A stretch of DNA of 64,000 nt from Gammaproteobacteria bacterium (lineage in GTDB: Bacteria; Pseudomonadota; Gammaproteobacteria; Pseudomonadales; JAUIET01). Numbering within the stretch: the first letter of the stretch is position 1; the number at the start of each line of letters is the position of its first letter. Below are positions 43,139-60,441 of the stretch, piece by piece. The notes under the pieces were generated by a model. It was not told the origin of the DNA, did not search any database, and saw only the letters and a list, made by a program, of their open reading frames with translations. The stretch lies in the NCBI GenBank assembly GCA_030429735.1, contig JAUIET010000008.1, forward strand, positions 74,726-138,725. The letters are read 5' to 3'. The position numbers were made by a program, and so were the translations under genes.

Positions 43139-44338
43139 TTAGTCCTTGTAGACTCGCGCAAACAGGGCCTTAAGGTAATCCGTTTCCGGAATCGCTGGAT
43201 GCACCGGGTGATCAGGCCCCTGGCTACCACGATAAATAAGTTGCACCTGCCGGTCGATTTTCCGCCCGGCACCGCGCACCTGATCCAGCAGTCGTTCTTG
43301 GCTCAGATGCATAGAGCAGGAACCCGACACCAGCAATCCATCACGCGCCAACAAGCGCATGCCCAACTCGTTAATGTGATAGTAAGCTGCCTCGCCTGAT
43401 TTCTGATCTTTACGACGTTTAATAAACGCAGGCGGATCAAGTACAACAATGTCAAAGCGCGTTTTTTCGGCTTGCAGCGTTTTCATCACGTCTATCGCTT
43501 TGCCCTTTAATGTTGTTACGCGCTCACTTACACCATTCAATGCTGCATTTTCTGTCGCCCATTCCAGCGCTTGCGCTGAGGCGTCAACACACACTACTTG
43601 CGCTGCGCCGGCTACGGCAGCCTGCACGCCCCAGCCGCCTGAGTAACTGAATACATCCAGTACTCGCTTGTCTTTGCACAAAGTCTGCAGCATGGCGCGG
43701 TTTAATCGATGGTCGTAGAACCAGCCGGTTTTTTGCCCCGTTTTGAGCGGCGCCATAAAACGTGTCTCGTTTTCAATAAGCTCTGCACATTCTGGAACCG
43801 GGCCGTAATCGGTTTGATACAGCGGCAGGCCTTCCAATTCTCTGGCGGAGTGATCATTTCGAAAAAGAATACTTGCGGGGTGCAGGCACTGGTCCAGTGC
43901 ATCGAGAATGTCCTGGCTGACGCTTTCCATGCCCGCCGTTGAGATTTGCACAACCAAATGATCACCAAAACGATCGACCACCAGACCAGGCAATAAGTCA
44001 GAGTCACCATAAACAAGTCGGTAGTAGGGCTGGCTGAAAAAGCGTTCTCGTAACGACAATGCCTGATTGAGCCTATGGACCAATAGTGATTTATCCAGTC
44101 CTTGCTTGTAGTCCCGGCTCACTATTCGGGCACAGATCAAACCGTTGGGATTGACCGTAGCCACTCCAAGGCTTTTTTGCTTGTCACCAAGCAATCGCAC
44201 CTGTTGGCCGGCGTGAAGCGCCTTAAGAGGTGTTGCCTTAATGTCTATTTCGTTCGAAAAGACCCACAAGTGACCCTTGCGCAGGCGCTTGTCAGCTCCG
44301 CGGTTAAGTTGCAACGGTGCTAGTTCAGAAGTGTCCAA
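43139..44338 (-). CDS. rlmI: Class I SAM-dependent 23S rRNA (m5C) methyltransferase, RlmI-like (PUA + MTase)
   Basis: GADKRLRKGHLWVFSNEI (PUA N-terminus), LDVFSYSGGWG and VVLDPPAF. The likely TTG start at 44338 gives ~400 aa. The track's His-rich extension to 44476 is unlikely to be real. Confidence 0.75.
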   Translation of the reverse strand: MDTSELAPLQLNRGADKRLRKGHLWVFSNEIDIKATPLKALHAGQQVRLLGDKQKSLGVATVNPNGLICARIVSRDYKQGLDKSLLVHRLNQALSLRERFFSQPYYRLVYGDSDLLPGLVVDRFGDHLVVQISTAGMESVSQDILDALDQCLHPASILFRNDHSARELEGLPLYQTDYGPVPECAELIENETRFMAPLKTGQKTGWFYDHRLNRAMLQTLCKDKRVLDVFSYSGGWGVQAAVAGAAQVVCVDASAQALEWATENAALNGVSERVTTLKGKAIDVMKTLQAEKTRFDIVVLDPPAFIKRRKDQKSGEAAYYHINELGMRLLARDGLLVSGSCSMHLSQERLLDQVRGAGRKIDRQVQLIYRGSQGPDHPVHPAIPETDYLKALFARVYKD

Positions 44339-44519
44339 TAATTTTATCCGGCGCTTAGGGCGTAATAGTGTGTGATGGTGATGATTTGCGTGCGTATTTT
44401 TGCAGCGCGGTGTTCGTACGTTAATCGGGTTAACACAATGGGAGGCGATTCTACCTTCTGGAGTGATGAGAACCAATCACTATCGTTGTTCGCAACAACG
44501 TGTTGACACGCCTGGCCTT

Positions 44520-44735
44520 TCACGCAATGGGCAAGCAGGTATCAAATTTCAACTCACGCAGTGCTATATGGGATTTGACCTGTGCAATCTGTGGGATCGC
44601 AAACATGAAATCCTCCAGAAAGCGGTCAAAACTTTCGATGCTCTCAGTGACCACGCGAAGAATAAAGTCGGCGTCACCGGTGGTGGCAAAACACTCGAGA
44701 AATTCCGGGCGCTCGGCAACCGAGCGTTCGAATTC
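44520..44735 (-). pseudogene. Displaced 3' fragment of an Lrp/AsnC-family gene (ligand-binding domain only); left direct repeat of the insertion
   Basis: The minus-strand reading gives ...TEFERSVAERPEFLECFATTGDADFILRVVTESIESFDRFLEDFMFAIPQIAQVKSHIALRELKFDTCLPIA*. There is no start codon and no HTH. It includes a 130-nt block (44572-44701) identical to 47930-48059. Confidence 0.85.
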
Positions 44736-45108
44736 GGTACTCGTTGCTCGGATTGGTTGCGTACTATTTGATCAGATATCAGCCGATCCGCGATCGGTGT
44801 GTCTTATATGCTGGCCTGATCGGACATATCAAAAAAGTGTGCGATCTTCTAACTTCGGCGGAGGTGGTTTAGACGAGCAAACTCCAAAAGCGCATACACC
44901 TAATTCAGCGAATGGTTACAGTTTAATCGTTGACGCTGGCTCGGTCGCGCTTTTCTCAAACCTGCCGATCATGCCAGACGCTGGCAAATGGAGGCGTTCC
45001 TATCATCTTTTTTCCTTTCTCGAGCATTCTTGCAAATATAAAAGTTGCATTTCGAATTTATAAAGACTAAATTCGTTTTAACGAGCGGGTTAATTCGAAA
45101 AACGCAAG

Positions 45109-46350
45109 ATGATTGAGCGAAAACTGGCAACAAGCATACTGGATGCGCTACAAGCATTTCCGGTTGTATACGTAAATGGGCCCCGCCAAGCTGGTAAAAG
45201 TACGCTGGTACAGAGCTTGGCACAAAATGATTGGCCCGCCGAATACGTGACATTCGACGAAGCGACTATGATGGGTGCAGCAGAGGCTAATCCAGAGAGC
45301 TTTCTACGCGCCTATCAAGATCGCCTCATTCTTGATGAGGTGCAGATGGCGCCTGCTCTCTTCCGTGCATTGAAGCTTCTTGCCGATGAAGCAAGACGTG
45401 CAGATAAAGCCAGGGCAAATGGACGCTACCTTTTAACCGGGTCGGCCAATATCATGGCTCTGCCCAAGCTCTCGGATGCGCTGGTCGGCAGAATGAGTGT
45501 TCTTACGCTCCTGCCGCTATCGGCTCTGGAAATAGCAAAGGGCGCAGGCGGCTTTCTTCCAAGCCTGATGAGTAACAGTTTTAAACCCGCCACGGTGCGT
45601 AGGAAGCACGCTTTGGTTGACGTCATCAGGCGAGCAACTTTTCCTGAAATAACAAATGATGACGACGATCGCGGTCGATGGTTTGAAAGTTATATCACCA
45701 CGATCTTACAGAGAGACGTCAGGCAGATTGCGGATATTGCTAAATTGGGAGTTCTGCCGAACCTGCTTAAAGTGCTGGCTGGCAGGGCGGGAGGACTTAT
45801 TAATGACGCCGATATTTCCCGCGCCATCGGACAAAATTCCGTGACAGCTAAAAACTATCGTATCTTGCTGCAAATGATGTTTCTGACATTTGACGTTAAA
45901 CCGTGGTATCGAAGTACGGGCAAGCGACTGGTGAAATCTCCGAAAGGATATCTCATGGACACCGCTCTTCTTTGCCATTTAGAGCAAATTGATTTGGCAA
46001 AGTCGGAACGTCAAGATCCTCACATTTTTGGGCATGTCTTTGAAAATTTTGTTGCCACTGAACTATTGAAACAACTCACTTCAAGCGAAGAAAAAGCAGA
46101 ACTCTATCATTTCAGAACCAGCGATGGGAAAGAAGTAGACTTTGTTCTGGAGCGCCGCGATGGGCGGCTTGCAGCGATTGAGGTAAAAGGACGTGACGCT
46201 GTGAGTGTTGCAGATTTCAAAGGATTGAAAGAGTTGTCCAGTTTGATAGGAGACGACTTCATTTGCGGTATCGTTCTATACCGTGGGAATAAAATCGTAC
46301 CTTTTGAGGAGAATATGTGGGCGGTGCCCGTCGACGCAATGTGGTCTTAG
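45109..46350 (+). CDS. AAA-type ATPase with DUF4143-like C-terminal domain (COG1373-type)
   Basis: 413 aa. Walker A VNGPRQAGKSTL and Walker B LILDEVQ. The C-terminal region with HVFENFVATEL...EVDFVLE is typical of this family. Confidence 0.8.
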   Translation: MIERKLATSILDALQAFPVVYVNGPRQAGKSTLVQSLAQNDWPAEYVTFDEATMMGAAEANPESFLRAYQDRLILDEVQMAPALFRALKLLADEARRADKARANGRYLLTGSANIMALPKLSDALVGRMSVLTLLPLSALEIAKGAGGFLPSLMSNSFKPATVRRKHALVDVIRRATFPEITNDDDDRGRWFESYITTILQRDVRQIADIAKLGVLPNLLKVLAGRAGGLINDADISRAIGQNSVTAKNYRILLQMMFLTFDVKPWYRSTGKRLVKSPKGYLMDTALLCHLEQIDLAKSERQDPHIFGHVFENFVATELLKQLTSSEEKAELYHFRTSDGKEVDFVLERRDGRLAAIEVKGRDAVSVADFKGLKELSSLIGDDFICGIVLYRGNKIVPFEENMWAVPVDAMWS

Positions 46351-46678
46351 TTTAAGCAGTCCCTATCAGTGTCGAAGCTGAAGTGCCAGGCGGATGAGTT
46401 TCGCATTGTAACTATCCAGTTCATAAGAGGCACTGGTAAGTGGAAACCGTCAGTAGATATTGAACCATCCTGTGAGTCGGCGCCATGTGTGTCCTATCAG
46501 CTGGCCAAATAGGGCATATCAAGGTCAGCAACCAGAGTTATCGTGTTATTTCCGTTTGCGCCTATCAGGCCAACAACATTGTCGAATACAAGTATCCTGC
46601 GCGTAAAACGCTCAGTACCCTTTGTGATCGTCGAACTGTGTATTTGTGAAATTTTTCTTTCTGGTCTAATGGTCCAAA

Positions 46679-46707
46679 TTGACGTTTATACATATTATAT
46701 GTATAAT
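46679..46707 (+). promoter_or_regulatory. Near-consensus sigma-70 promoter with overlapping palindromic operator upstream of vapB
   Basis: TTGACG (46679-46684), 17-nt spacer, TATAAT (46702-46707). The perfect palindrome tacatat-t-atatgta (46689-46703) overlaps the spacer and the -10 box. Confidence 0.6.
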
Positions 46708-46773
46708 GTGTAATGTATGCTATCCTGCCGCAAAGCTAGAGCGGTGTTGGGCTAATTGAATGAGGTGAGAACG

Positions 46774-47055
46774 ATGAGTGTTGATTTGCATGAGACTGTC
46801 TCGGCAACAGAATTAGTCCGCAACCTGTCAGTATTGATTGATAAAGTGCGAATATCCAATCGGAGCCTGTATATCACGAAGGGTAGCCAGACGGTGGCAG
46901 AATTGAGTCCGCCACCGAAGTCTGGTCTGCCAATAAGCGAATTGGGACGACTATTGGAATCTCTACCCAGACTGGACGACGATGCTGAAGCACTGTTAAC
47001 AGACATGGATGCCATTAGAACCCAAGGCGAATTGCCGGAGAACCCATGGGATTAG
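46774..47055 (+). CDS. vapB: Type II antitoxin (Phd/YefM-like fold), partner of the PIN toxin
   Basis: ATG at 46774 follows AGGTGAG. MSVDLHETVSATELVRNLSVLIDKVR...YITKGSQTVAELSP. Overlaps the toxin start by 10 nt. Confidence 0.75.
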   Translation: MSVDLHETVSATELVRNLSVLIDKVRISNRSLYITKGSQTVAELSPPPKSGLPISELGRLLESLPRLDDDAEALLTDMDAIRTQGELPENPWD

Positions 47056-47453
47056 TGATTGACACTAACGTATTCATCAATGCCGAAAATGGGCGCATTG
47101 AATTGAAGAATTTGGTGCGGTATGCCAATTATGGCGACGCTTTTATTGCGGCAGTAACGGTCTCCGAACTGCTGACGGGTGTACACATGGCCAAAACAAC
47201 CGCGATCCGTGTGCGACGCTCCGCATTTGTGGAGGGGGTACTGAGCGGTGTGCCGACTTTGGATTTCACAGAGGAGGTCGCCCGAACTTATGCGGAACTG
47301 TATGCGCATTTTTTAAGAAAACGAACAAAGCCCAGTAGCACTGTGCATGATCTTCAAATAGCGGCGACGGCCATTACGTATGGCTATGCGGTGCTGACCA
47401 GTAATATCGATGACTTTAAGAAAATACCTGGCTTGACAGTCGAATGCCTGTAA
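47046..47453 (+). CDS. vapC: PIN-domain ribonuclease toxin
   Basis: MGLVIDTNVFI (first acidic residue), TVSELL, and DLQIAATAITYGYAVLTSNIDDF. Confidence 0.8.
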   Translation: MGLVIDTNVFINAENGRIELKNLVRYANYGDAFIAAVTVSELLTGVHMAKTTAIRVRRSAFVEGVLSGVPTLDFTEEVARTYAELYAHFLRKRTKPSSTVHDLQIAATAITYGYAVLTSNIDDFKKIPGLTVECL

Positions 47454-47510
47454 TAGGTCCTGCCCCAACGAAGCGGTTCTATCGTGCGTGGCAGTAGCCC
47501 CCGATCTTGG

Positions 47511-47600
47511 CCGAGGCTTCAATACCCGAATATCCCGATACCCATCGACCTCCAACAAATGCTTGTCACCAGACACAATAAATTCAGTTTGGCTAGCCAC
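47511..47600 (-). pseudogene. C-terminal remnant of a second PIN-family toxin gene
   Basis: The minus-strand reading ASQTEFIVSGDKHLLEVDGYRDIRVLKPR matches the ...ADYLVTGDKDLL...I.I..P... C-terminus of stand-alone PIN toxins. No N-terminal part is present. Confidence 0.5.
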
Positions 47601-47609
47601 TGCAATCGA

Positions 47610-47666
47610 ATATGCTTCAAGTGGACGGAACGTGGTCCCGACGAAGTTGAAGTCACTGATTACTAG
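47610..47666 (+). pseudogene. higB: C-terminal remnant of a higB-type (RelE/ParE superfamily) toxin gene
   Basis: ...NRICFKWTERGPDEVEVTDY* matches the characteristic HigB tail (WRICFRW...V.IVDYH). Everything upstream is missing. Confidence 0.55.
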
Positions 47667-47670
47667 AGAA

Positions 47671-47793
47671 TATTAGGCACGTATACCGACACATAGAGTA
47701 CCGACTCATCCTGGCGAAATGCTGGTGGAGGAGTTTTTGAACCCAATGGAAATAACGCAAAGGGAGTTGGCGTCAGCTATTCGTGTTCCTTGA
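47671..47793 (+). pseudogene. higA: N-terminal remnant of a higA-type HTH antitoxin gene
   Basis: ...PTHPGEMLVEEFLNPMEITQRELASAIRVP* shows the HigA HPGE.L.EEFL signature. No start codon, and truncated inside the HTH. Confidence 0.55.
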
Positions 47794-47859
47794 ATTTATA
47801 GATCAATCTTCCTAACTGCTGCCAGGTTCAGCAAATTAATTACTGCTCCGCATACCAGT

Positions 47860-48333
47860 TTAACGATCCAATATTGCTGATCCTATCGGCAACGACGTGT
47901 CAAACTTCAACTCGCGTAGCGCAATATGAGATTTGACCTGTGCAATCTGTGGGATCGCAAACATGAAATCCTCCAGAAAGCGGTCAAAACTTTCGATGCT
48001 CTCAGTGACCACGCGAAGAATAAAGTCGGCGTCACCGGTGGTGGCAAAACACTCGAGAATTTCCGGGCGTTCGGCAACCGAACGCTCGAATGAGGTGGTG
48101 TTCTCGAGAATGTGCCTCGCAAGTGTCACGTGTACAAAGGCGCATAAGCCGAACCCTGACTTCGAGCGATTTAACAGTGCGCGGTAGCCTTCAATAACGC
48201 CCGCCTGTTCCAGCGCGCGAACGCGTCGCCAGCAGCCTGCGGTGGAGATGCCTACCCGTTCTGCCAATGCCTGATTGCTGAGCCTGCCATCCCCCTGAAG
48301 TATGGCCATGATTTTTCGGTCGGTATCGTCCAT
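47860..48333 (-). CDS. Lrp/AsnC family transcriptional regulator (intact copy)
   Basis: ATG at 48333. MDDTDRKIMAILQGDGRLSNQALAERVGISTAGCWRRVRALEQAGVI (HTH) plus a RAM-type C-terminal domain. Divergent from the IOR gene. Confidence 0.85.
   Translation of the reverse strand: MDDTDRKIMAILQGDGRLSNQALAERVGISTAGCWRRVRALEQAGVIEGYRALLNRSKSGFGLCAFVHVTLARHILENTTSFERSVAERPEILECFATTGDADFILRVVTESIESFDRFLEDFMFAIPQIAQVKSHIALRELKFDTSLPIGSAILDR
47878..48093. repeat. Right direct repeat (the 3' end of the intact lrp-family gene)
   Basis: Aligns without gaps to 44520-44735 at an offset of 3,358 bp. The 130-nt core at 47930-48059 is identical. Confidence 0.85.
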
Positions 48334-48488
48334 TGGGCGCAATCTCTAGATACGAAATATAATTACATATATCTATTAGAATTGAAATAATAATACGAAA
48401 ACGCCTGATATGCGACACAAAGTGTAAGCACCTTTCAGCCAAACTGGGCTAATGTCAGCGTATAAGGTTTCTCTACAAGTGTCTGCTT

Positions 48489-51400
48489 ATGAACAGTGCG
48501 CTCCCTCCAGATCTGGACAGCTATGAACTCAAAGACCGCTTTGCCAGAGCGCAGGGGCGGGTGTTTCTCACCGGCACTCAGGCACTGGTGCGCCTGCCTT
48601 TGATCCAGCGCCAGATTGACCAGGCCAATGGGCTGAATACGGCCGGCTTTATATCGGGCTACCGTGGCTCACCACTGGGCGGCTACGACATGGAACTGTG
48701 GCGTGCCAAACAGGAACTGGCAGACAATGCCATTGAGTTTCTGCCCGCGGTAAACGAAGACCTGGCGGCCACAGCGGTTCTGGGCAGCCAGCAGGTGGAA
48801 AGCGACCCGGATCGCCAGGTAGATGGTGTGTTTGGTATCTGGTACGGCAAAGGCCCGGGTGTTGATCGTGCCGGCGACGCCTTGAAACATGGCAATGCCT
48901 ATGGCAGTTCACCACACGGTGGTGCGTTGATTATCGCGGGTGATGATCACGGCTGTGTGTCGTCCAGCATGTCGCATCAGTCGGATGTGGCGTTTATGGC
49001 GTTTTTTATGCCCACGCTGAACCCTGCCTCTGTTGCCGAATACATCGAATACGGCTTGTACGGCTTTGCAATGTCCAGATACTCGGGTTGTTGGGTGGGC
49101 TTCAAAGCCATTTCGGAAACCGTTGAAAGCGCCGCCTCGGTCAACGTGGGTGTAACCCCCACGTTTCATGTGCCCAAGGATTATCAGGCGCCGGAGTATG
49201 GCTTGCACTACCGTTGGCCAGACCTGCCTGGTCCCCAGGTTGAGGCTCGCATGGTGGCCAAGCTGGATGCGGTGCGCGCGTTTGCCAAGCGTAACCCGAT
49301 TGACAAACGTATCTACGGCATACCAGACGCGCGGTTTGGCATCATCACCACTGGCAAGGGCCATCTGGACTTGATGGAGGCGCTTAAACTGCTGGGCATA
49401 GACGAGAACCGTGCACGAGAGATAGGCATAGACATCTATAAAGTCGGCATGGTCTGGCCACTGGAAACGGAAGGTGCCAGGGCCTTTCTGCGCAATAAAA
49501 AAGAAGTACTGGTGGTGGAGGAAAAACGCGGCATCATCGAAAGTGAGTTGAAAGAATTTCTGTATGACTATCAAAGCGACAAGCCCAATCGCATGGTGGG
49601 TAAGTACGATGAAGCGGGTAATCCGCTGGTTCCGTGGACCGGAGAGCTTAGCCCGACCTTGCTCGCGCCGATTGTCGCATCGCGAATCACGCATGAATTC
49701 CCGGAGCTGAATTTTGATGAGCAACTGGAAGCGCTGGCCGCCAGGCGGGTGTCGTTTGAAGCGCCGTCGGATGTAAAGCGTACGCCGTACTTTTGCCCGG
49801 GCTGCCCACATAACACCTCTACCAAGGTGCCGGAAGGCAGCAAGGCACTGGCCGGTATTGGCTGCCACTTTATGGCGTCATGGATGAACCGCAACACCGA
49901 GTCCCTGATTCAGATGGGCGGTGAAGGTGTGAACTGGGTGAGCAAGTCAAAATTCAATGGCGGCAAGCACATCTTTCAAAACCTGGGTGAGGGCACTTAC
50001 TTCCACTCCGGGTATATGGCTATCCGTCAGGCGGTTGCGGCAAATACCAACATCACCTATAAAATTTTGTTCAACGACGCAGTCGCCATGACCGGCGGCC
50101 AGCCGGTGGACGGCACCATTACTGTGCCCGCCATCGCAAACCAGGTTCGATCAGAAGGCGTGCAGCGCATCGCAGTCGTCAGTGACGACCCGGCGAAGTA
50201 CACCAACAAAGCCCAGTTCCCACCGGCCACCAGTTTTCACGATCGATCGGAAATGGACGAGCTGCAGCGGGAACTGCGCAACATACAGGGAGTGTCTGTG
50301 CTGATTTACGATCAGGGCTGCGCGGCTGAAAAGCGCCGCATGCGAAAGCGCGGAACCTACCCCGACCCGGCAAAACGGATATTTATCAATGACGCGGTCT
50401 GTGAAGGCTGCGGTGATTGTGGTGAGCAATCCAATTGCCTGGCGATTTTTCCGCTGGATACTGAACTGGGTCGTAAACGCAAGATCGATCAGTCGTCCTG
50501 CAACAAGGACTATTCCTGCGTGAAAGGCTTTTGCCCCAGTTTTGTGACGGTGGAAGGCGGAGAATTACGGCAAACCAGGGCATTGGATACCGACGACGAA
50601 TTGAACAGCAAGGTATCGCGGCTGCCGATGCCACAGTATTCAGCGCTGGACGACAACTACAACATGCTGGTAGCCGGTATCGGTGGTACCGGTGTCGTGA
50701 CCGTCGGTGCCTTGATCACCATGGCAGCGCACCTGGAGGGCAAAGGGGCCACGGTGCTGGACTTTACCGGCTTTGCGCAAAAAGGCGGCACGGTAATCAG
50801 TCATATTCGTATAGGTGCCACGCCTGAGGCGCTCACGCAAGTGAGGATTGCCGATGGCGCCGCCGATGCCGTGGTGGCCTGCGATATTGTGGCGGGTACC
50901 GATCCACGCTCCAGCAGAGTACTGTCGGCTGGCAGAACCCGGGTGCTGGTTAACAACACCGAAGTACCGAGCGGGCAGTTCGTCCAGGACAGAAACGCCA
51001 ATATGCGCATGCAGGATCGGCTGCAACTGATTCGAGGTGCGGTCGGCAAGGAGCGGGTTGAACTGGTTGAAGCCAATCTGGCCATGGAACGACTGCTGGG
51101 CAACACCGTGTATTCCAATGTATTTCTGCTCGGCCTTGCCTGGCAACGCGGCCTGGTGCCGGTATCACACCAGGCCCTGCTGCGCGCGATCGAGTTAAAC
51201 GGGGTGAATATCGCGTTGAACCAACAGGCGTTTAACTGGGGTCGTTTGGCAGCTGAGCACCCGGAGTACCTTGACCAAGCGGCTGCACTGAACACGGCAC
51301 GACCCACACCCCACACCCTGGAAGACATTATTGAGCATCGCGCCGCGCTGCTGACAGACTACCAGAACGCAGAGTACAGCGAGCGCTATCGGTCACTGGT

Positions 51401-51983
51401 CATGAGGGTGCACCACGCCGAAGCAGGTTTGGGCACGGGTTCAATGCCGCTCACCGAAGCCGTGGCCAGATACCTGTACAAAGTGATGGCCTATAAGGAT
51501 GAGTACGAAGTTGCCCGACTGTACACCAACGGTGAGTTTGCCAAAAAGCTGGGTGATACGTTTGAAGGCCCTTATCACCTTACATTTCATATGGCCCCGC
51601 CCATATTCAATGCCGGCACCGACGAGCTGGGGCGCCCCGGAAAACGTCAGTTTGGCCCATGGATGCTCAGCGCACTGAAGCTGCTGGCACGCTTGAAGGG
51701 CTTGCGTGGCACGGCCTTTGATCTGTTCGCCTGGTCACACGATCGGCGCAAGGAGCGGAAACTGATGGATGATTACATTGCCCTGCTGGATTCATTGGCA
51801 CAGGGCCTGAATGAGCACAACCACTCAGTAGCGGTTAGCTGCGCCAGCCTGCCCGACAAAGTGCGGGGCTTTGGTCCGGTGAAGTCAGAAGCTATTGCAA
51901 GGTATTACGAAGAAAAAGTACTGCTGTTGGATCAGTTTCACGGTGAGGACAAAGTGGTTGTGGTGTTTGAGGTAAGCAACTGA
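48489..51983 (+). CDS. Indolepyruvate:ferredoxin oxidoreductase family protein (fused IorA/IorB type 2-oxoacid:ferredoxin oxidoreductase)
   Basis: 1,164 aa. TPP-binding N-terminal half and ferredoxin-like cysteine clusters CPGCPH and CEGCGDCGEQSNC...CNKDYSC.KGFCPSF. C-terminal gamma-like domain GIGGTGVVT. Confidence 0.85.
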   Translation: MNSALPPDLDSYELKDRFARAQGRVFLTGTQALVRLPLIQRQIDQANGLNTAGFISGYRGSPLGGYDMELWRAKQELADNAIEFLPAVNEDLAATAVLGSQQVESDPDRQVDGVFGIWYGKGPGVDRAGDALKHGNAYGSSPHGGALIIAGDDHGCVSSSMSHQSDVAFMAFFMPTLNPASVAEYIEYGLYGFAMSRYSGCWVGFKAISETVESAASVNVGVTPTFHVPKDYQAPEYGLHYRWPDLPGPQVEARMVAKLDAVRAFAKRNPIDKRIYGIPDARFGIITTGKGHLDLMEALKLLGIDENRAREIGIDIYKVGMVWPLETEGARAFLRNKKEVLVVEEKRGIIESELKEFLYDYQSDKPNRMVGKYDEAGNPLVPWTGELSPTLLAPIVASRITHEFPELNFDEQLEALAARRVSFEAPSDVKRTPYFCPGCPHNTSTKVPEGSKALAGIGCHFMASWMNRNTESLIQMGGEGVNWVSKSKFNGGKHIFQNLGEGTYFHSGYMAIRQAVAANTNITYKILFNDAVAMTGGQPVDGTITVPAIANQVRSEGVQRIAVVSDDPAKYTNKAQFPPATSFHDRSEMDELQRELRNIQGVSVLIYDQGCAAEKRRMRKRGTYPDPAKRIFINDAVCEGCGDCGEQSNCLAIFPLDTELGRKRKIDQSSCNKDYSCVKGFCPSFVTVEGGELRQTRALDTDDELNSKVSRLPMPQYSALDDNYNMLVAGIGGTGVVTVGALITMAAHLEGKGATVLDFTGFAQKGGTVISHIRIGATPEALTQVRIADGAADAVVACDIVAGTDPRSSRVLSAGRTRVLVNNTEVPSGQFVQDRNANMRMQDRLQLIRGAVGKERVELVEANLAMERLLGNTVYSNVFLLGLAWQRGLVPVSHQALLRAIELNGVNIALNQQAFNWGRLAAEHPEYLDQAAALNTARPTPHTLEDIIEHRAALLTDYQNAEYSERYRSLVMRVHHAEAGLGTGSMPLTEAVARYLYKVMAYKDEYEVARLYTNGEFAKKLGDTFEGPYHLTFHMAPPIFNAGTDELGRPGKRQFGPWMLSALKLLARLKGLRGTAFDLFAWSHDRRKERKLMDDYIALLDSLAQGLNEHNHSVAVSCASLPDKVRGFGPVKSEAIARYYEEKVLLLDQFHGEDKVVVVFEVSN

Positions 51984-52108
51984 GGGCTTACTGTGCGGGT
52001 ATTTGAAGATACAATGGTGTCTCGAGGCGGTCATTTGGCGAACAACCAGTAATGTGCCAGTGAGAACACCCTCGGGCGTCGCTTTACCAGGGCTTGAAAC
52101 TAATAATA

Positions 52109-54325
52109 ATGGTTCGTTCACTTCTCGTTCTTATCTCGCTGGTGCTTGCCAGCATTGCTCAGGCCGAGCCACGCGCTGCATTAGAGGAGGTAATAGTCAG
52201 CGCCACCAAGCGCAGTGAAAGCCTGCAGGATGTGTCGATCTCTGTGGCCGTGCTCAGCGGCGATGAGCTCAGCCGGCGCAATAAAACCCAGATTGAGGAA
52301 CTGTCTCGCCTGGTGGCCGGTTTTACGTTTTCACCAGGTACCTCCGACGCTGCGCGCAATATCATCGTGCGTGGCGTGGGCACGCAGAGCTTAAGTCGCT
52401 CTGTGGAGCAATCGGTGGGTACGGTGGTGGACAATGTCGCCTCCGGCAGCCTGTCGGGATCCTTGCTTGACTACAGCGACGTAGAACGCATTGAAGTGCT
52501 GCGCGGACCACAGGGTATGCTGTTTGGCAAGAACGCCAGTGCAGGCCTTTTGAGCATTACCACGCGTGCACCCAGCGACGTGCTGAGCGGTGGCATAGGA
52601 CTGCGCTATGGCAGTGAGAACTTGCTCAACCTGTCTGCTTATGCGTCCGGACCATTGTTAGATGAGCGCCTGCTGGGTCGTTTGTCTGTATTTCAAAACA
52701 GCCGCGATGCGATCTTGAAGAATCAATTTCCCGGCGGCGACGACCTGAATAATCGTAACGATTGGGGCGCCCGGCTAAAATTACAGTGGCTGGCCACAGA
52801 CCGGCTGGATATGCTGTTCAGTGTGGTGCGCAATGAACGAGACCATAAGTGCTGCCAGGGCGCCTTGCGCCTGGTGGAGCCGGGTAGTGTCGCCGATCGG
52901 GAAGGCGGCCCGGTTGGTGAGCGGGTGGATACGATTATTGATAACGATACGGCTGAGGGAACAACCGAGCACACATCAGCTAGCATCGAAGTAAACTATC
53001 AGTTCAACGACTATACACTGACGTCTGTTTCCGCCTGGCTGGAAGACGATGTGTTTGGTGCCTTTCGCTCAGATCTGTACACGCGCACCGCACTGGTGCG
53101 CAACGACAGCCTGGCCAATTACCAGCAGGTAACCCAGGAGCTGCGCTTGAGCTCGCCTGTCGGCGGCGTATTCGATTACGTTGCCGGCTTGTATTGCTAT
53201 CGTCAGGAAATTGATCGCCGCTTCGACCGCCTGATCGATTTGTACGGAATCGATCTGGTGGCTGTTGCGAACACACTGGCGGTGTCTGTGCTGAACACCC
53301 ATCAAAACACCAGTGAGAGCCTGGCAGCATTCGGTCAATTGAATTGGCATTTGAGCGAACGACTGCGGCTGTCACTGGGTCTGCGGTATAACAATGACGA
53401 GTTGAGTATTGATCAAACCGTGGCGGCCATGCCCGGCACGCTGCCCGAAGCACCGCCAGGGTCAATCTCTGCGTCCACCAGCGAGACAGCCTGGTCATGG
53501 CGAGCAATCGCTGAAGTTGATGTTGCAGACGATGCCATGATGTACCTGAGCATTGCCAGGGGATACAAAGGGCCGGGCGCTAATTCCCTGCCTTCCGGAC
53601 CCAGCAGCGGCAATGTGTTTGTGGCCCCGGAAATTCCAAGCAATTATGAGCTGGGCCTGAAATCGCAATGGCTGGGTGGCAGGCTGCGTGCCAATGTGGC
53701 GGTGTACTTCACGCGCTTTGAAGACTTTCAGGCCTCTGCGCAGGTGCCCGATGCGTTTCCGCCCATCTTTTTTCTGGCCAACGCCGGCGAACTGGAAACG
53801 CGTGGCGCGGAGCTGGAGCTTACCACCAGGCTGAGTGATCGCCTGATGTTGTCTACGTCACTGGCGTACACCGACGCTGTTTTTTCCGAATGGCCAGACG
53901 GGCCATGCTACAGCGGTCAAACCGCAGCAGACGGATGCATTGACGGGTCTCAGAGTTTAAGTGGCGCGGACATGCCCAATTCCCCCGACTGGGCGATCAA
54001 CCTGACGGCAGACTACCGCATACCGCTTGCCTCCATGCCATTCGATGCCTTTATCAGTACCAGCGCCTACTGGCGTGACGAGACACTGTACTCAACAGCG
54101 AATGACCCTGTGTTAGTGGGCGAATCCTACGCGGTGTTTGACGTCGCACTGGGCATCGAAGCACCGGATCAGCGTTACAGTGCGCAACTGTTTGTGCAGA
54201 ATCTGTTTGATGAGTTTTATATATCGAGCATTGAAGAGCAATCGGTGGTGGGTATCCGGGCAGCGCATGGACTGCCGTACGACTACACACGGCGATTTGG
54301 CGTTTCTATTCAGATGAACTTTTAA
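52109..54325 (+). CDS. TonB-dependent receptor
   Basis: ATG at 52109 gives the signal peptide MVRSLLVLISLVLASIAQA. EEVIVSATKRSESLQDV and IERIEVLRGPQGMLFGKNASAG. Terminal QMNF. Confidence 0.9.
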   Translation: MVRSLLVLISLVLASIAQAEPRAALEEVIVSATKRSESLQDVSISVAVLSGDELSRRNKTQIEELSRLVAGFTFSPGTSDAARNIIVRGVGTQSLSRSVEQSVGTVVDNVASGSLSGSLLDYSDVERIEVLRGPQGMLFGKNASAGLLSITTRAPSDVLSGGIGLRYGSENLLNLSAYASGPLLDERLLGRLSVFQNSRDAILKNQFPGGDDLNNRNDWGARLKLQWLATDRLDMLFSVVRNERDHKCCQGALRLVEPGSVADREGGPVGERVDTIIDNDTAEGTTEHTSASIEVNYQFNDYTLTSVSAWLEDDVFGAFRSDLYTRTALVRNDSLANYQQVTQELRLSSPVGGVFDYVAGLYCYRQEIDRRFDRLIDLYGIDLVAVANTLAVSVLNTHQNTSESLAAFGQLNWHLSERLRLSLGLRYNNDELSIDQTVAAMPGTLPEAPPGSISASTSETAWSWRAIAEVDVADDAMMYLSIARGYKGPGANSLPSGPSSGNVFVAPEIPSNYELGLKSQWLGGRLRANVAVYFTRFEDFQASAQVPDAFPPIFFLANAGELETRGAELELTTRLSDRLMLSTSLAYTDAVFSEWPDGPCYSGQTAADGCIDGSQSLSGADMPNSPDWAINLTADYRIPLASMPFDAFISTSAYWRDETLYSTANDPVLVGESYAVFDVALGIEAPDQRYSAQLFVQNLFDEFYISSIEEQSVVGIRAAHGLPYDYTRRFGVSIQMNF

Positions 54326-54600
54326 ACGAGTTGCGAACCCACAGTGTAGGCAACCGACAATATCGAAGTCAGGCATATCATGATCCGGCCCACCGGATAA
54401 TGGCCCAGCATCACGCGGGTTAGTGGTTTACTATGACAGCTGTGATTATGCCTGCACTAAGTTTGTACATAATTTTCTTCAAACCCGTGTCAAATTCGAA
54501 TTTAATACAGTCGTTCACACTTTGTGGTGAGGCTGGCATGCTGCCGGCCAGAAGAATTGCCGCATTTTCCAAAAACTGCCGATGAGATCATTGAGTCATA

Positions 54601-57600
54601 ATGCCTAAAAAGAAGTACCCGAAATTCGCAGACAGAGTCTTGGAACTCACGAAAAATGATGCCCAATTACAGCAACATATGCCACGAGCAGACCTGTGGG
54701 AAGGGCTGGCTGACGATAGCGTGCCTCTGGCAAGCAATATTGATCGCTTACTAGCAGGCTACGGCGACCGCCCCGCGCTGGGTGAGAGAGAGTACACTCT
54801 GGAGGATACCAACGGTAGCGGTCGGCTTACTCGGCGTTACGGCCCGGGGTTCAAGACGATCTCCTATGTCGAGTTTCGTCACCGCGTTCGTTCAATTGCC
54901 TCAGCCTGGCGAGCAGACGGTCGCTTTCATGTCCGCCCGGACGAGTTCGTTTGCATGATGGGCTTTGCCGGCGTGGATTACAGCGCGCTGGACGTCGCGT
55001 GTCTGTACACGCAAACTGTGAGCGTTCCCGTTCAGGCCAATTATGGCTTTGACATGCTGCGTGGCATGTTAGCGCTGATTGAGCCGACCGTTATTGCCAC
55101 GGCCGCGCCCGACCTGGAAATGGCAGTTCGGCTTGCCGAAGCAATACCCAGCATCAAGAGCTTTATCGTGTTTGATTACGATGTTGGAGACAGCAGCAAT
55201 CTTGCCGCATGGGAGGCTTCCAAAAACGCACTCGCCGAAAAATGCCCGAACATTGCCGTGATATCGCTTGATGAGCTTGCGGAATTGGGGGATGCAGATG
55301 CCTGGGAAATGATGCCCCCGCACAGAGAGGGCGCTGAGCGCCTAACATCAATCATTCATTCCTCTGGCAGTACTGGTACACCGAAGGGCGCAATGTTACC
55401 GGAGCGCTCCGTGGTGGCTTCATGGAACGGTGTGTCGCCGGATGCGCCCGCTATTGGTATTGGCTTAGCGCCTTTGAACCATTTGATGGGTCGCTTGGTG
55501 ACGCAGGGAACCATGGGCGTTGGCGGCTTGGTTAATTTTACGCTGGCAGACGACATGTCTACGCTGATCGAAGACATTCGCGCCACCAGGCCAATTAATA
55601 TTGCGTTCGTGCCGCGTATTATAGATATGATTTATCAAGACTACCTCAATCAGGTATCGCGCCGGGCAAATGACAGCGGCATATCGGAAAATCAAGCGCG
55701 CGAAGAAATTATAATCGAGTTTCGTGGCAGCTATCTTGGCGACCGATTACTGGGCGGCAGTGTTGGCAGTGCACCGACCACCAAAGAAATGCGTGACTTC
55801 ATGATGGCTTGCTTCAATATACCATTGGTTGATGGTTACGGAAGTACGGAATCTGGTACTGGCAGAGTAACGTTCAATAATCGTGTGCTCAGACCAGGCG
55901 TTATCGACTATAAACTTCGCGATATGCCGGAGCTTGGCTACCTGACCAGCGATAAGCCTTACCCCCGCGGTGAGTTTTGCATTAAAACCAGAACACAGAT
56001 TCTTGGTTACTATAAGAACCCGGAAGCATCAGCGAAACTTTTAGATGATGAAGGGTATTATCTAAGTGGCGACATAGTCGAAGAGCGCGGACCTGATCAT
56101 GTGGTGGTTATTGACCGCTGTAACGATGTACTCAAACTGTCACAAGGTGAATATGTTGCTGTAGGGCGTCTCGGAACCATTTTCGAATCTGAAAGCGATC
56201 TTATCCAGCAAATTTATGTCTACGGCAACTCACTACGGTCTTATCTTGTGGCAACCGTAGTGCCCGATATGCAAGCCCTAACGTCAATTCTGGGTGACAC
56301 GCCTGAACCTAAAGCCATCATTGCTTTGATCCGTGAAGATTTCCAAAGAATCGCACACAGGGTTGATTTGAAGTCATTTGAAGTACCGCGCGAATTTATT
56401 CTGGAGCAAGAACCCTTTTCCGCCGAAAACGGGCTGCTAACCAGCGTCTTAAAGAAAAAGCGCCCCGCACTTAGAGAAAAATACGGCGAGCAACTGGAAG
56501 CCTTGTATGAGCAAGGCGAACAACTGCAGTCGGAGCAACTCAGTAGGCTGAAAGACCCGGACTCAACGCTCACCACAGTTGAAAAATTACGCATACTGTT
56601 AGCGAGTAATCTGGGAATCCAAGAGGAGGATGTTGACGACGACAAAACCTATCATGAACATGGTGGCGATTCTCTGGGGTCTGTCACGTTCGCAATGGCC
56701 ATTGCAAATGTGTTCGGAACCGAGATTGCATCCAATGATATTCTCAGCCCGGCTGGTGGAATCAATAGTTGGGTAAAAACGCTAAGCAGTGGCTCTGATA
56801 AAAAGCTTTCGAACTTCACAGACGTTCATGGCCAACGCACGGATGAGATTTTCGCCGCTGATTTAAGGCTGGAAAAATTTTTGCCGTCAGATGTTCTGGC
56901 AAGTGCATCCTCTTTGCCTGCCGCTGCATCCGGCGAGCCACGTACTGTTTTCCTGACTGGCGCCAATGGATTTCTTGGTCGTGTCGTGTGTCTGGAATGG
57001 TTGAAGCAACTGTCAACGCACGGAGGCAGGCTGATTTGTTTGATCAGGGCAAGCGACGATCTGGCCGCACTTTCGCGATTAAGCGATGCGTTTGATAGCG
57101 CTGGTGAGGAAATGTCATCAGCATTCAATAGTTTTAAGGGTTACCTTGAAGTAGTAGCCGGCGACTTTGGGCAACCGTATTTAGGCTTAACACAGGAGCG
57201 GTTCGAGTCCCTGGCCAATGAAGTTGATGTGGTCAGTCACGGTGGTGCGCTGGTCAATCACGTGCTGGACTACCAGTCTTTGTTTGTGCCGAATGTGGGT
57301 GGCGTGGCCGAGATTATCCGCTTAGCGCTTACGGGGAAAAAGAAACCGATTGATTTCGTGTCGAGTGTGGCCGCTTCTTCACATTTGCAATTTAACACCG
57401 GTGGCACCGAAACCGCCGAGCTGGCTGATTCGGCAAAGCTGAACGACCGCTATGCAAACGGTTATGGCGCCAGCAAGTGGGCGGGTGAGGTGTTACTGCG
57501 TGAAGCACACCAGGGTTTCGGCTTGCCCATCCGAATTTTTCGTGGTGACATGATGCTGGCGCACCGTGAGATAGCGGGTGTGATCAACAGCGACGATATG

Positions 57601-59211
57601 TTTACCCGCCTGCTGTACAGTGTGATTAAAACCGGTGTGGCGCCGAAGTCGTTTTATGAACCCAACCCTGACGGAAGCCGTGCACTGGTGCCTTATGACG
57701 GGCTGCCGGTAAACGCAGTTGCCGCGTCTGTAGTTAATGGCGGGCGGTTTTTTAGTGAGGGTAAAACGGTATTCTGCATCGACAACGCTTTCACTGATTT
57801 AAGCAATTCGCTTGACGCGTTTGTGGATTGGATCATTGATGCGGGCTATGACATCCAGCGCCTCGAAGCATATGAAGATTGGTTTTCGCGTTTCAAACGC
57901 CGAATGACGGCATTACCTGAAGAGGAAAAGAAACAAAGCGCTCTTGCCTTGCTGAAGGCGTTTGAGCGACCTAACTCGTTCGTGCCGTTCAGAGGTGAAT
58001 CCAGCAATTTCCAGCTGCTTGTTTCAAAAATGGGTATTGATGCTTCTGAGCTACAGTTGGATGCAGGGTTCATTGTTAAGTGCTTGAATGATATGGCTCT
58101 GCACGGCTTGATTGAAAAGCCGGGTAAACTGCCTGTTCCTAAAGCGCTAAATAAACCCGAAACATCGGTAACCCAGGCTTATGGGGTTACTTCGAGATCG
58201 TCTGATGTTACTGCGATGAACATAGAGCGTCGCTTGCCTGGTGCCAAAGACGTTGCGATTGATATCGAGTACTGTGGTGTGTGCCATTCAGATATTCACT
58301 TTGCGCACAATGATTGGGGAGCTACCCAATATCCGCTTGTTCCTGGCCATGAAATTATTGGTCGTGTGGTTGCTGTTGGCAAAGAAGTTGCTGAATTCAG
58401 TGTTGGCGAGCGGGTAGCAGTCGGTTGCATGGTTGATTCCTGCAGAAGCTGTGCAAGTTGCGAAGACGGTCTTGAGCAATATTGTGATGGCGGACTGGTG
58501 ATGACGTACAACAGCTATGATCACCGACATCAGAATGCGCTTACCTTTGGCGGTTACTCCAATGACATTGTTGTCGATAAAGACTTTGTGATGTCTGTGC
58601 CCGAAAACCTTGACCCTGCAGGTGCCGCACCACTTTTATGTGCAGGTATCACCACCTGGTCGCCCTTGCGCGAATGGGGTGTGAAAGAAGGCATGCGGGT
58701 GGGTGTGGTAGGGCTTGGTGGTCTTGGCCACATGGCCGTCAAATTTTCTGCAGCCCTCGGCGCGCACACGGTTTTGATTTCAACGTCGCGCGAGAAAGCG
58801 GATGATGCCCGAAGATTGGGCGCCGCCGATGTGTTGATTTCCAAAGATCTGGACGCCATGCGCGATGCGAAAGAGAGCTTCGATTTCATACTGGACACAG
58901 TGCCAGTGCATCATGATGTTGATGACTACCTTCGACTGTTGAAGCGCGATGCGACGCTTTGCCTGGTGGGCGCTTTAGAACCACTGGAGTTTCACTCAGG
59001 ACGCGTAGCGATGCGGCGAAAGAAAATCAGCGGCTCATCCATTGGCTCAATCAAAGAAACCAGAGATATGTTAGCGTTCTGTGGTGAAAACAACCTCACG
59101 GCCGATATTGAATTGATCAAACCCGATGATATTCAACATGCATGGAATAGGGTGCAACGCAGTGACGTCAAATATCGGTTTGTGATTGATATGCAAGGGG
59201 CTAAGCAATAA
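54601..59211 (+). CDS. Four-domain fusion: carboxylic-acid-reductase-like adenylation domain, carrier (PCP/ACP) domain, thioester reductase domain and YahK-type Zn alcohol dehydrogenase
   Basis: 1,536-aa uninterrupted ORF. SSGSTGTPKG (aa 254-263), GGDSL with Ser691, TGANGFLG (from aa ~786) and YGASK. The C-terminal ~350 aa carry GVCHSD, GHEIIG, CRSCASCEDGLEQYC and GLGGLGH, and are collinear with E. coli YahK as I recall that sequence. Confidence 0.85.
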   Translation: MPKKKYPKFADRVLELTKNDAQLQQHMPRADLWEGLADDSVPLASNIDRLLAGYGDRPALGEREYTLEDTNGSGRLTRRYGPGFKTISYVEFRHRVRSIASAWRADGRFHVRPDEFVCMMGFAGVDYSALDVACLYTQTVSVPVQANYGFDMLRGMLALIEPTVIATAAPDLEMAVRLAEAIPSIKSFIVFDYDVGDSSNLAAWEASKNALAEKCPNIAVISLDELAELGDADAWEMMPPHREGAERLTSIIHSSGSTGTPKGAMLPERSVVASWNGVSPDAPAIGIGLAPLNHLMGRLVTQGTMGVGGLVNFTLADDMSTLIEDIRATRPINIAFVPRIIDMIYQDYLNQVSRRANDSGISENQAREEIIIEFRGSYLGDRLLGGSVGSAPTTKEMRDFMMACFNIPLVDGYGSTESGTGRVTFNNRVLRPGVIDYKLRDMPELGYLTSDKPYPRGEFCIKTRTQILGYYKNPEASAKLLDDEGYYLSGDIVEERGPDHVVVIDRCNDVLKLSQGEYVAVGRLGTIFESESDLIQQIYVYGNSLRSYLVATVVPDMQALTSILGDTPEPKAIIALIREDFQRIAHRVDLKSFEVPREFILEQEPFSAENGLLTSVLKKKRPALREKYGEQLEALYEQGEQLQSEQLSRLKDPDSTLTTVEKLRILLASNLGIQEEDVDDDKTYHEHGGDSLGSVTFAMAIANVFGTEIASNDILSPAGGINSWVKTLSSGSDKKLSNFTDVHGQRTDEIFAADLRLEKFLPSDVLASASSLPAAASGEPRTVFLTGANGFLGRVVCLEWLKQLSTHGGRLICLIRASDDLAALSRLSDAFDSAGEEMSSAFNSFKGYLEVVAGDFGQPYLGLTQERFESLANEVDVVSHGGALVNHVLDYQSLFVPNVGGVAEIIRLALTGKKKPIDFVSSVAASSHLQFNTGGTETAELADSAKLNDRYANGYGASKWAGEVLLREAHQGFGLPIRIFRGDMMLAHREIAGVINSDDMFTRLLYSVIKTGVAPKSFYEPNPDGSRALVPYDGLPVNAVAASVVNGGRFFSEGKTVFCIDNAFTDLSNSLDAFVDWIIDAGYDIQRLEAYEDWFSRFKRRMTALPEEEKKQSALALLKAFERPNSFVPFRGESSNFQLLVSKMGIDASELQLDAGFIVKCLNDMALHGLIEKPGKLPVPKALNKPETSVTQAYGVTSRSSDVTAMNIERRLPGAKDVAIDIEYCGVCHSDIHFAHNDWGATQYPLVPGHEIIGRVVAVGKEVAEFSVGERVAVGCMVDSCRSCASCEDGLEQYCDGGLVMTYNSYDHRHQNALTFGGYSNDIVVDKDFVMSVPENLDPAGAAPLLCAGITTWSPLREWGVKEGMRVGVVGLGGLGHMAVKFSAALGAHTVLISTSREKADDARRLGAADVLISKDLDAMRDAKESFDFILDTVPVHHDVDDYLRLLKRDATLCLVGALEPLEFHSGRVAMRRKKISGSSIGSIKETRDMLAFCGENNLTADIELIKPDDIQHAWNRVQRSDVKYRFVIDMQGAKQ

Positions 59212-59595
59212 CCGAAGTCTGTCGCAGAGCCTCGCGTTGTATCTCGTCAATACCAAGAGACTCCAAAACCACATCAGTATGCTGCCCATTATGGAACGCA
59301 TTTACGGAACAAGAGTGACCGGAACTAACTCCACAGGACAAACCTAGCCTCAAAACTTTGCCGTTTTGCACAGCTTGGTGGGCACTGGGTCTTGTACTAT
59401 ATCTCATCAGGCTGCGTGCAGCTAAGCGATTCAGCGTAGACTCTGCGCGGTCGGGCTACATCGAGGAATAAACGTAGTCATAGAACTGCGACAATGCTCG
59501 TGAGCCGTAAGGCAATTAGGGGAAAACATTCACCGAAACGGGTGGGTTTGGAAGTGAAGTAAACGTGCTGGTCACTATTCTACTCCTTGGCTATT

Positions 59596-60441
59596 TTATT
59601 TTTGAAACAATACTTCGGGGCTGCCGTACTCGTAATAGCCTAAGGGCCCGGCCATCATTCCATCATCGTAGTGAGAATACAGGTCATAACCCAATAACTG
59701 ACGAGCGCGCTCCGGCCACTGCCTTGCCTGCTCTACTGTGGTGTGAAGGAAATGATTCTCCTGGGTGCGCAGCCAGCCAAGCACATACGAGGCAACAATC
59801 GCCCGCCGCCGCTCGCCGCTGGTATTTGCACCGCCGCCATGTAGGGTTTTGCCACCCACAAACACAATGCTCCCAGCACGCATAACCGCTTGGGCAATTT
59901 CATCAGGCTTGGCTGTGCGTTCCGGGTCGTCCCAGAGATGACTGCCTGGTACAACCTGGGTTGCGCCGTTTTCCACAGTGAAGTCTGTGCCTGCCACCAT
60001 AGTGTTGAATTGCAACATTCGCCCCGGCATCCAGAAATGCCCAGGCCAGATCATGTCATCTGTATGGAGTTCCTGAGCCGTTTCGCCACCATGGATCTCT
60101 ATGATCTCGCTGGAGTTCAACAAGTACTGCCCACAGCTTGGCGCCAAAAAATGATCCATCACGCCCAGAATACGTTCATCGATCATGTGTTCGACGTAAT
60201 TGCTTGCCTTGCTAACGATACCATTCAACCTCACCGTGTGGTGGCCAAGAAATTCCTTGGCCTCTGGTTCACCATAATCATAAGGGGTATAGGAGTCGAT
60301 AGATGTTTGCACAGAAGCGTTGAATTCAGACAACCATTCCTGCGTTACAAAGTCGTCAACGATGACAGCTCCGTGTTCTTCTACTTCCGCCACAATATCG
60401 GCATCAGAGCAATCCGAGGGTTGGTGTGTAATGGCGGCCAT
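59596..60441 (-). CDS. Phytanoyl-CoA dioxygenase (PhyH) family Fe(II)/2OG oxygenase
   Basis: 281 aa. QELHTDD (HxD) and a later GKTLHGGGAN His. Overall PhyH-like pattern. Confidence 0.7.
   Translation of the reverse strand: MAAITHQPSDCSDADIVAEVEEHGAVIVDDFVTQEWLSEFNASVQTSIDSYTPYDYGEPEAKEFLGHHTVRLNGIVSKASNYVEHMIDERILGVMDHFLAPSCGQYLLNSSEIIEIHGGETAQELHTDDMIWPGHFWMPGRMLQFNTMVAGTDFTVENGATQVVPGSHLWDDPERTAKPDEIAQAVMRAGSIVFVGGKTLHGGGANTSGERRRAIVASYVLGWLRTQENHFLHTTVEQARQWPERARQLLGYDLYSHYDDGMMAGPLGYYEYGSPEVLFQK

Follow-up and report, generated by a model that had tools for sequence, protein, structure and literature searches.

A decayed islet of candidate defence and toxin-antitoxin genes between two copies of an lrp gene end in a marine gammaproteobacterium

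How does the end of a regulator gene come to stand twice in one stretch of DNA, with foreign sequence in between? The question is raised by 64,000 nucleotides from a gammaproteobacterium of the lineage JAUIET01 (assembly GCA_030429735.1, contig JAUIET010000008.1, positions 74,726 to 138,725), which were analysed as a whole and are called the window throughout. Here the 3′ part of lrp, a gene of the Lrp/AsnC family of regulators, occurs in two copies, and between them lies a decayed, immobile accessory islet of ~3.1 kb (44739 to ~47790). As argued below, the locus is best described as a decayed integrative element in a gene 3′ end, of the kind known from e14 in icd, with ordinary defence and toxin-antitoxin (TA) cargo, and its formation can be resolved only in part. 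The argument starts from the following sequences.

47860..48333, minus strand: intact gene of the Lrp/AsnC-family regulator, 157 amino acids (aa), tail ...FDTSLPIGSAILDR and stop (Pfam HTH_24 and full-length AsnC_trans_reg)
44520..44738, minus strand: orphan copy of the last 72 lrp codons, tail ...FDTCLPIA and stop, TGA at 44520-44522 (AsnC_trans_reg positions 13-73, E 1.4e-18)
44572..44701, no strand assigned: left copy of the 130-nt identical block (exact-match count; the Logan contigs L090 and L001 end 30 nt inside)
47885..48096, no strand assigned: right copy of the repeat, with the identical block at 47930-48059 (repeat search, alignment and mismatch count)

The first-pass annotation of this DNA had noticed that the last ~70 codons of lrp are present twice at a gap-free offset of 3,358 bp, the right copy completing an intact gene and the left one being an orphan fragment with a stop of its own. 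All of this was borne out. Repeat search and alignment gave a direct repeat of 212 nt (44527-44738 and 47885-48096), 92% identical and free of gaps at that offset. Beyond its limits, identity at the same offset is ~30% (11-13 matches per ~40 nt on each side), and no third copy of the whole repeat exists in the 64-kb window. In the right copy both domains, HTH_24 and AsnC_trans_reg, are complete, and the product is identical to P0361 of the NCBI record. The orphan consists of codons ~84-150, the CLPIA tail and the stop at 44520-44522; its homology begins abruptly at codon ~84 (FERSVAERPE), and upstream of this codon no decayed lrp homology was found. Foreign DNA between direct copies, a proximal copy that completes the reading frame and an orphan that starts abruptly at codon ~84 together form the signature of a single-crossover insertion.

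A position-by-position count also confirmed that the central 130 nt of the two copies are identical (44572-44701 = 47930-48059, 0 of 130 mismatched), with identity ending exactly at both limits. The flanks are less alike than the ~85-90% first estimated, their counted identity being only 71-84%. On the gene-end side, 15 of 52 nt are mismatched at 44520-44571 (71% identity), or 11 of 45 if counted from 44527 (76% identity); on the gene-internal side (44702-44738) the mismatches are 6 of 37 (84% identity). At the ~19% divergence of the flanks, 130 consecutive identities would arise by chance with a probability of ~1e-12. It is worth stressing that a fixed site-specific crossover cannot make a perfect block of 130 bp between flanks that are 16-29% diverged. 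The earlier proposal that the element recombined within this identical core thus does not hold as a site-specific event: a block of this kind in 71-84% flanks is better explained by gene conversion after insertion or by heteroduplex repair during a RecA-dependent insertion.

The differences between the copies are informative as well. We aligned the intact copy, the orphan and two relatives, namely L082, a 4.8-kb Logan contig from SRR23272322 that is 95% identical to the window from the neighbouring indolepyruvate ferredoxin oxidoreductase (IOR) gene through lrp, and L083, which served as the outgroup. Third codon positions account for 15 of the 20 differences between intact copy and orphan, and for all ten between L082 and the core shared by the window copies. 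The compared sequences are thus alleles shaped by purifying selection, and the orphan comes from a once-functional allele. Such a third-position bias is not what decay in place leaves behind, and it weighs against a local tandem duplication. Window and L082 are ~7% diverged across the whole of lrp, and between these two the core does not stand out, so the identity of the two window copies is a derived feature of the window lineage; that lrp causes no break in the L082 contig likewise shows the identical block to be specific to this lineage. Outside the block the pattern is mosaic, with the orphan agreeing with L082 at seven flank sites and the intact copy at the others. These sites are too few to tell the native end from the foreign one.

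The DNA between the two lrp copies is foreign by composition. The comparison of GC and k-mer profiles that had been proposed as a check placed the G+C content of the islet at 47-49%, versus 52-54% in the left flank and 55-57% in the right, and made the islet the top tetranucleotide outlier of the window (z = 3.4). Its cargo was described at first sight as a DUF4143-type ATPase, vapBC and TA debris, a description that Pfam and tblastn upheld.

45030..45108, plus strand: leader upstream of the DUF4143 gene, with a promoter-like core of ~55 nt, TTGCAAATATAAAAGTTGC.TTT.GA..TTATAAA (DNA homology to metagenome loci)
45109..46350, plus strand: gene of an AAA_14 + DUF4143 ATPase/PD-(D/E)XK protein, 413 aa, PDC-S01 (DUF4143 E 5.6e-43, AAA_14 E 4.9e-23)
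46688..47455, plus strand: vapBC module of promoter-like site, antitoxin and PIN toxin (Pfam; 80% identity to L115 over exactly this span)
46756-47055, plus strand: Phd/YefM-like antitoxin (weak Pfam PhdYeFM match)
47046-47453, plus strand: PIN toxin (Pfam PIN, E 8.9e-14)
47500..47672, minus strand: possible C-terminal stump of a second PIN-family toxin (weak tblastn match to plasmid PIN toxins, E 8e-3; no Pfam match)
47677..47793, plus strand: truncated higA, the first ~37 codons of a HigA-family antitoxin (tblastn, 78% identity, E 2e-11)

DUF4143, vapB and vapC are the only open reading frames (ORFs) of the islet with family matches. Neither a recombinase ORF nor the stump of one was detected in it by the ORF list, Pfam or scans of the spacer frames, in agreement with the first-pass annotation; Pfam found nothing in the spacer frames of the islet, and a replication gene is missing from both its ORF list and its Pfam matches. 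Rfam returned zero matches at the gathering threshold across the window and none at E <= 1 in the islet. The window holds no tRNA or tmRNA genes, and a tRNA-type attachment site is therefore excluded.

Integration into the 3′ end of a protein gene had been called less common than integration into a tRNA gene. This was overstated, since the 3′ ends of protein genes, including that of icd, have long been classical attachment sites. The best-documented parallel is that of e14 and phage 21, where an intact icd is accompanied by the pseudogene icdC (PMC13626634). In both cases an intact gene stands on one side of the element and an orphaned copy of its 3′ end on the other, and the copy borne by the element completes the gene. 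The repeats are of comparable size (165 bp in e14, 212 bp in the islet), both ~92% identical with mainly synonymous differences, and the cargo of e14 (Lit, McrA) is of the defence type too. Unlike the islet, which is five times smaller and without a recombinase, e14 has retained intE and xisE and remains able to excise (PMC13626634). The repeats also differ in their fine structure: the 165 bp of icd/icdC contain roughly a dozen mostly third-position mismatches, scattered so that the longest identical run is ~30 nt, whereas the islet repeat has a perfect stretch of 130 nt, with every mismatch beyond its limits. Thus, of the features that define the e14-icd case, the islet shows the direct repeat, the complete reading frame, the synonymous divergence and the foreign composition; it lacks the recombinase and the short-core structure.

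The explanation that we prefer, with confidence about evenly balanced against doubt, is that an integrative element entered the lrp 3′ end, lost its recombinase through a deletion that truncated higA, and had its core homogenised later. A circular element carrying the last ~70 codons of the lrp allele of another lineage would have inserted by Campbell-type recombination. The incoming fragment would then have finished the intact regulator gene, leaving the displaced end as the orphan at 44520-44738. The recombinase may formerly have stood beside lrp and have been removed by the deletion that cut higA at ~47790, and the 130-bp identity would be no integrase core but a tract left by RecA-type recombination or gene conversion, either concomitantly or later. 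The stump of higA, recognised by tblastn against annotated HigA antitoxins on plasmids, is cut at the junction with lrp-proximal DNA, where the homology to L082 stops as well. Integrases of such elements usually sit at the lrp-proximal junction, and the position of the cut is counted in favour of a lost recombinase.

To place the locus among its relatives, three further features are needed.

47785..47859, minus strand: ~75 bp 3′ of the lrp stop, common to L082, the inner limit of strain-specific DNA (L082 alignment)
43139..44338, minus strand: rlmI-like gene of a class I S-adenosylmethionine (SAM)-dependent rRNA methyltransferase, 399 aa, left neighbour (Pfam PUA_3, Methyltrans_SAM)
48489..51983, plus strand: gene of the IOR family, divergent from lrp (NCBIfam NF009589, 1729 bits)

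A scan of genome contigs with Lrp gave 80 loci, the best of them from Halieaceae/Pseudomonadales at 64-74% identity; in none was rlmI nearby or a second lrp fragment present. Among 26 Halieaceae/Pseudomonadales loci, most keep the lrp-IOR pair wherever there is sufficient DNA upstream, and none (0 of 26) has rlmI within 10 kb of lrp, a second lrp fragment or conserved genes downstream. A protein search with Lrp added only two relatives above 75% identity, and viral contigs gave no match to it. In L083, where Lrp is 81% identical, an MFS transporter gene follows directly. Viewed from the other side, the relatives with RlmI proteins 83-85% identical in the protein search have other genes upstream of rlmI, and no lrp there. 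Synteny to the left of rlmI, on its far side, is kept in three of them (L084, L087 and L089). In L084 and L087, relatives at the level of the genus, rlmI is linked to an APH gene via the gene of a 331-aa membrane protein, and in L087 also via a giant cadherin-repeat gene; the window homologue of this APH gene lies at 62864-63976, 18.5 kb from rlmI. The interval between (44342-62863) holds the orphan, the islet, lrp, IOR, a TonB-dependent receptor, a carboxylate-reductase-like multidomain enzyme, PhyH, TetR and a DsbA-like gene. From this comparison, the juxtaposition of lrp and rlmI is peculiar to the window lineage, with the orphan and the islet lying on a synteny breakpoint. The view that rlmI was the original neighbour of lrp is unproven, being neither upheld nor refuted by a breakpoint at this place and by relatives that carry other genes upstream of rlmI.

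Several observations weigh against insertion by an integrative element. The foremost concerns L082. The Lrp of L082 ends in the same tail as that of the window (SLPIGSAILDR), and the two sequences also share the ~75 bp past the stop, after which they diverge. Since L082 thus has the tail and the adjoining DNA that the element is supposed to have brought, a related element would be needed at the L082 site, and no integrase was seen there within 2.5 kb. Nor was a recombinase found among the ORFs scanned from 33 to 64 kb of the window, or among ten genes downstream of lrp in distant relatives (0 of 10), all of which are metabolic or unassigned. The proposed search for an empty site, with lrp followed directly by rlmI, found none in the retrievable relatives, of which none is both close enough and covered on both flanks; rlmI adjoins lrp in none of them, and the L082 site is occupied by other cargo. 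Finally, the 34-nt gene-internal flank has three sites at which the intact gene stands alone and the orphan has the base of L082 and the outgroup. The simplest expectation would be the reverse, though no more than these three sites bear on it. Of the original claim that the islet was inserted at a regenerated gene end, the repeat and the intact reading frame stand; the boundary of strain-specific DNA at ~47785-47795, which falls inside the truncated higA and not at the edge of the repeat, and the tail common to L082 count against it.

An alternative, which we consider possible but rather doubtful, is that the intact lrp, its tail and the ~75 bp are native, as in L082, and that accessory genes recombine into a hotspot situated between lrp and rlmI. 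With the same reservation, the orphan would be the stump of a second lrp allele that was formerly complete, or an old attachment scar that came in along with accessory DNA, and its 130 bp would have been converted later from the resident lrp. In favour of this, L082 carries the tail and the ~75 bp and then different accessory genes, the junction cuts higA, and there are several flank sites where L082 and the outgroup side with the orphan against the intact copy. Moreover, synteny breaks off upstream of rlmI in every relative examined, and the 18.5 kb are absent there in L084 and L087. Integrase-less hotspots for defence and accessory genes resemble the islet in their small modular cargo without mobility genes, and a different cargo in a 95% identical relative fits them. 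Unlike the islet, they normally have no duplicated piece of a core gene; an orphan end like that of lrp is instead the hallmark of a single crossover. A hotspot also leaves the sharp onset of the orphan at codon ~84, in front of which no decayed lrp sequence lies, to be accounted for, and makes a coincidence of its position at the far end of the foreign DNA in direct orientation, which is the geometry of a single crossover. A further idea is that the 3′ region of lrp was duplicated in tandem on the spot around cargo native to the locus. The repeat is indeed direct and gap-free, but the cargo is compositionally foreign and present in unrelated genomes, the 16-29% divergence of the flanks falls mostly on third codon positions, unlike the decay of a pseudogene in place, and the duplication was found in no relative. 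A local duplication, or an ancestral duplicated arrangement, had been named in advance as what would overturn the insertion; with foreign cargo and no relative sharing the duplication, it is disfavoured, and we regard it as scarcely credible.

Insertion itself may also have taken place without an integrase. Non-replicating circular or concatemeric DNA with an lrp 3′ fragment captured from an earlier host could have entered by a single RecA crossover inside lrp, which we rate as conceivable but on balance unlikely; on the same rating, the 130-bp block would be a tract of heteroduplex and mismatch repair, and no site-specific recombinase would ever have been involved. This agrees with a perfect block of 130 bp in 71-84% flanks, where icd/icdC has scattered mismatches and identical runs of at most ~30 nt, with the failure to detect a recombinase gene or stump, and with cargo modules that are self-contained and move without recognisable ends. 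Against it, 130-215 bp of 80-100% homology allow low recombination rates only, and a circular intermediate is required for which no route of formation is known. Such a capture is, in addition, hard to tell from the preferred integrative element followed by gene conversion. A different matter is whether the assembly renders the locus correctly. The k=31 Logan contigs of ERR3428548, the sample from which the window itself comes, stop exactly 30 nt into the identical block on three sides (L090 ends at 44601, and L001 spans 44672-47959), and this k=31 graph is equally compatible with the integrated form and with an empty site plus a 3,358-bp circle. That the true state is such an empty site (rlmI-lrp, with the CLPIA tail) together with the circle, or a mixture of both forms, seems very improbable to us, however: the public 215-kb contig threads the region as integrated, L082 shows that lrp is joined to the SLPIGSAILDR tail in nature, and the islet has no replication gene.

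Returning to the preferred integrative element, its cargo is a mosaic of compact modules that circulate separately, with sharp boundaries, and are found in unrelated genomes. The largest of them is the DUF4143 gene. Its product matches the PADLOC hidden Markov model (HMM) for PDC-S01 (PDLC04790) at full length (E 7.8e-141, residues 1-413) and has the AAA_14 and DUF4143 pair of that family, which makes the gene a candidate for anti-phage defence. Proteins of the PDC-S01 type are described as ATPases fused to a PD-(D/E)XK domain (PMC12988326; PMC3424549). The family is very common, and most such defence candidates await validation of their antiviral activity (PMC12988326, PMC3424549). In 20 metagenome loci with DUF4143 relatives, DNA homology is limited to 45030-46355, that is, from the leader to the stop codon, and the genes around are unrelated from locus to locus. 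The leader core is kept in nearly all of 14 aligned loci, even at 48-55% protein identity. The gene thus seems to move as a unit of ~1.33 kb together with its leader and without recognisable ends.

The vapBC module shows equally sharp limits. Its antitoxin and PIN toxin genes overlap by 10 nt, and in front of them lies a promoter-like site at 46679-46707 (TTGACG-17-TATAAT, 11/12 in the promoter scan). Within 46679-46730 this site overlaps the palindrome TATACATATTATATGTATA, likely an autoregulatory operator of the antitoxin. The best NCBIfam match of VapC reaches 57 bits versus a cut-off of 140, and the predicted toxin is accordingly a PIN toxin of the VapC kind, not a curated equivalog. Its cluster has members in five other assemblies. 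In L115, a 6.45-Mb genome, an 80% identical vapBC is flanked by two transposase genes. It lies 3 kb from another AAA_14/DUF4143 gene, the whole region being 9643-14796 of L115, so that both cargo types of the islet occur together elsewhere too. Searches of plasmids with the islet DNA and with an ORF of L082 yielded only a distant vapC match or nothing.

In L082 the cargo beyond the boundary is another one, a pair of hypothetical genes for proteins of 76 and 208 aa. The 208-aa protein has 4,087 homologues; where their contexts could be read, they were other accessory settings, in one of which the 76-aa gene was close by. At the end of the L082 contig (4791-4822) we observed a perfect palindrome, CAAGTGTGGCACGTGCCACACTTG, which also occurs near the homologous 208-aa gene in L111, L112 and L113 and is probably a repeat that broke the assembly.

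The cargo of the two strains has one motif in common.

44797..44832, plus strand: 36-nt imperfect-palindrome motif, copy 1 (GTGTGTCTTATATGCTGGCCTGATCGGACATATCAA) (motif search: two copies in the window versus 0 expected)
46487..46522, plus strand: copy 2 of the 36-nt motif, in direct orientation, 1,690 bp from copy 1

These two copies bracket the DUF4143 gene (consensus TGTGTCYTA...GCTGGCC..AT.GG.CATATCAA), and a third stands in L082 at 2380-2416, with a different cargo and unchanged orientation relative to lrp. The copy in L082 folds into a 14-bp hairpin (z = -4.35), whereas the two in the window gain nothing over shuffled sequence on folding. No further copies were found in the rest of the window, in 100+ other loci, in IMG/VR or in JGI metagenomes. 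One gene between two direct copies of a hairpin-forming motif resembles the cassettes of integrons and CALINs or the passengers of IS200/IS605. Unlike these, the islet has neither an integron integrase nor TnpA, only three copies of the motif are known, and by eye the motif is not like the R′′/R′ consensus of attC; nor do DUF4143 relatives elsewhere carry it. An attC site, an IS200/IS605 end, a repetitive extragenic palindromic (REP) element and a terminator were all considered for the motif, and none is supported. A motif-bounded DUF4143 cassette was also rejected: relatives share only 45030-46355, without the motif.

A more speculative thought, which we judge quite improbable, is that the locus represents an undescribed integrase-free homing DNA, a small circle with a captured host-gene 3′ fragment as its sole "attachment site" and RecA-type entry and exit. 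Were this true, it would explain the 130-bp block, and the 36-nt motif would mark the joints at which modules such as PDC-S01 are added. The motif is known only from cargo downstream of this lrp, in two strains.

As for the neighbourhood, the orphan lies 181 bp upstream of the rlmI-like gene, the product of which has NCBIfam matches under the equivalog cut-offs and is 100% identical to P0121. The hairpin described after the orphan (44484-44500) proved to be a weak stem of 6 bp, A+T-rich and without a T tract. It is absent from the output of the terminator scan, and shuffled sequence folds at least as well as its region (z = +0.3); in general, neither terminator scan nor folding gave a convincing terminator after either copy of lrp. 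On the other side of the islet, the stretch from 48.5 to 53.5 kb is a mild outlier in tetranucleotides and GC. Differences between the window and L082 are clustered, with ~20 in 90 bp of the IOR gene (49229-49318) and ~25 in the lrp-IOR intergenic region (48340-48410); elsewhere in the IOR gene they number 0-5 per 100 bp. This clustering suggests a patchy history of recombination at the locus.

What the locus means can be put at several levels. It adds the Lrp/AsnC regulator gene of a marine gammaproteobacterium of the uncultured type to the long list of targets for insertion at a 3′ end, which is routine. The islet shows how a very common candidate, PDC-S01, travels, namely as a compact unit of ~1.33 kb with a conserved leader, alongside TA modules. 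The 130-bp block shows that the gene ends which an insertion leaves in duplicate can undergo homogenisation and so become substrates for precise, RecA-dependent loss, and a repeat of this length makes the integrated and the excised form indistinguishable in k-mer assembly graphs. In this bacterium, the two 130-bp repeats should permit the islet to be lost precisely, in rare RecA-dependent events, and the lrp then remaining would be chimeric but complete and would end in ...CLPIA. Losing the islet would thereby switch the C-terminal tail of the regulator.

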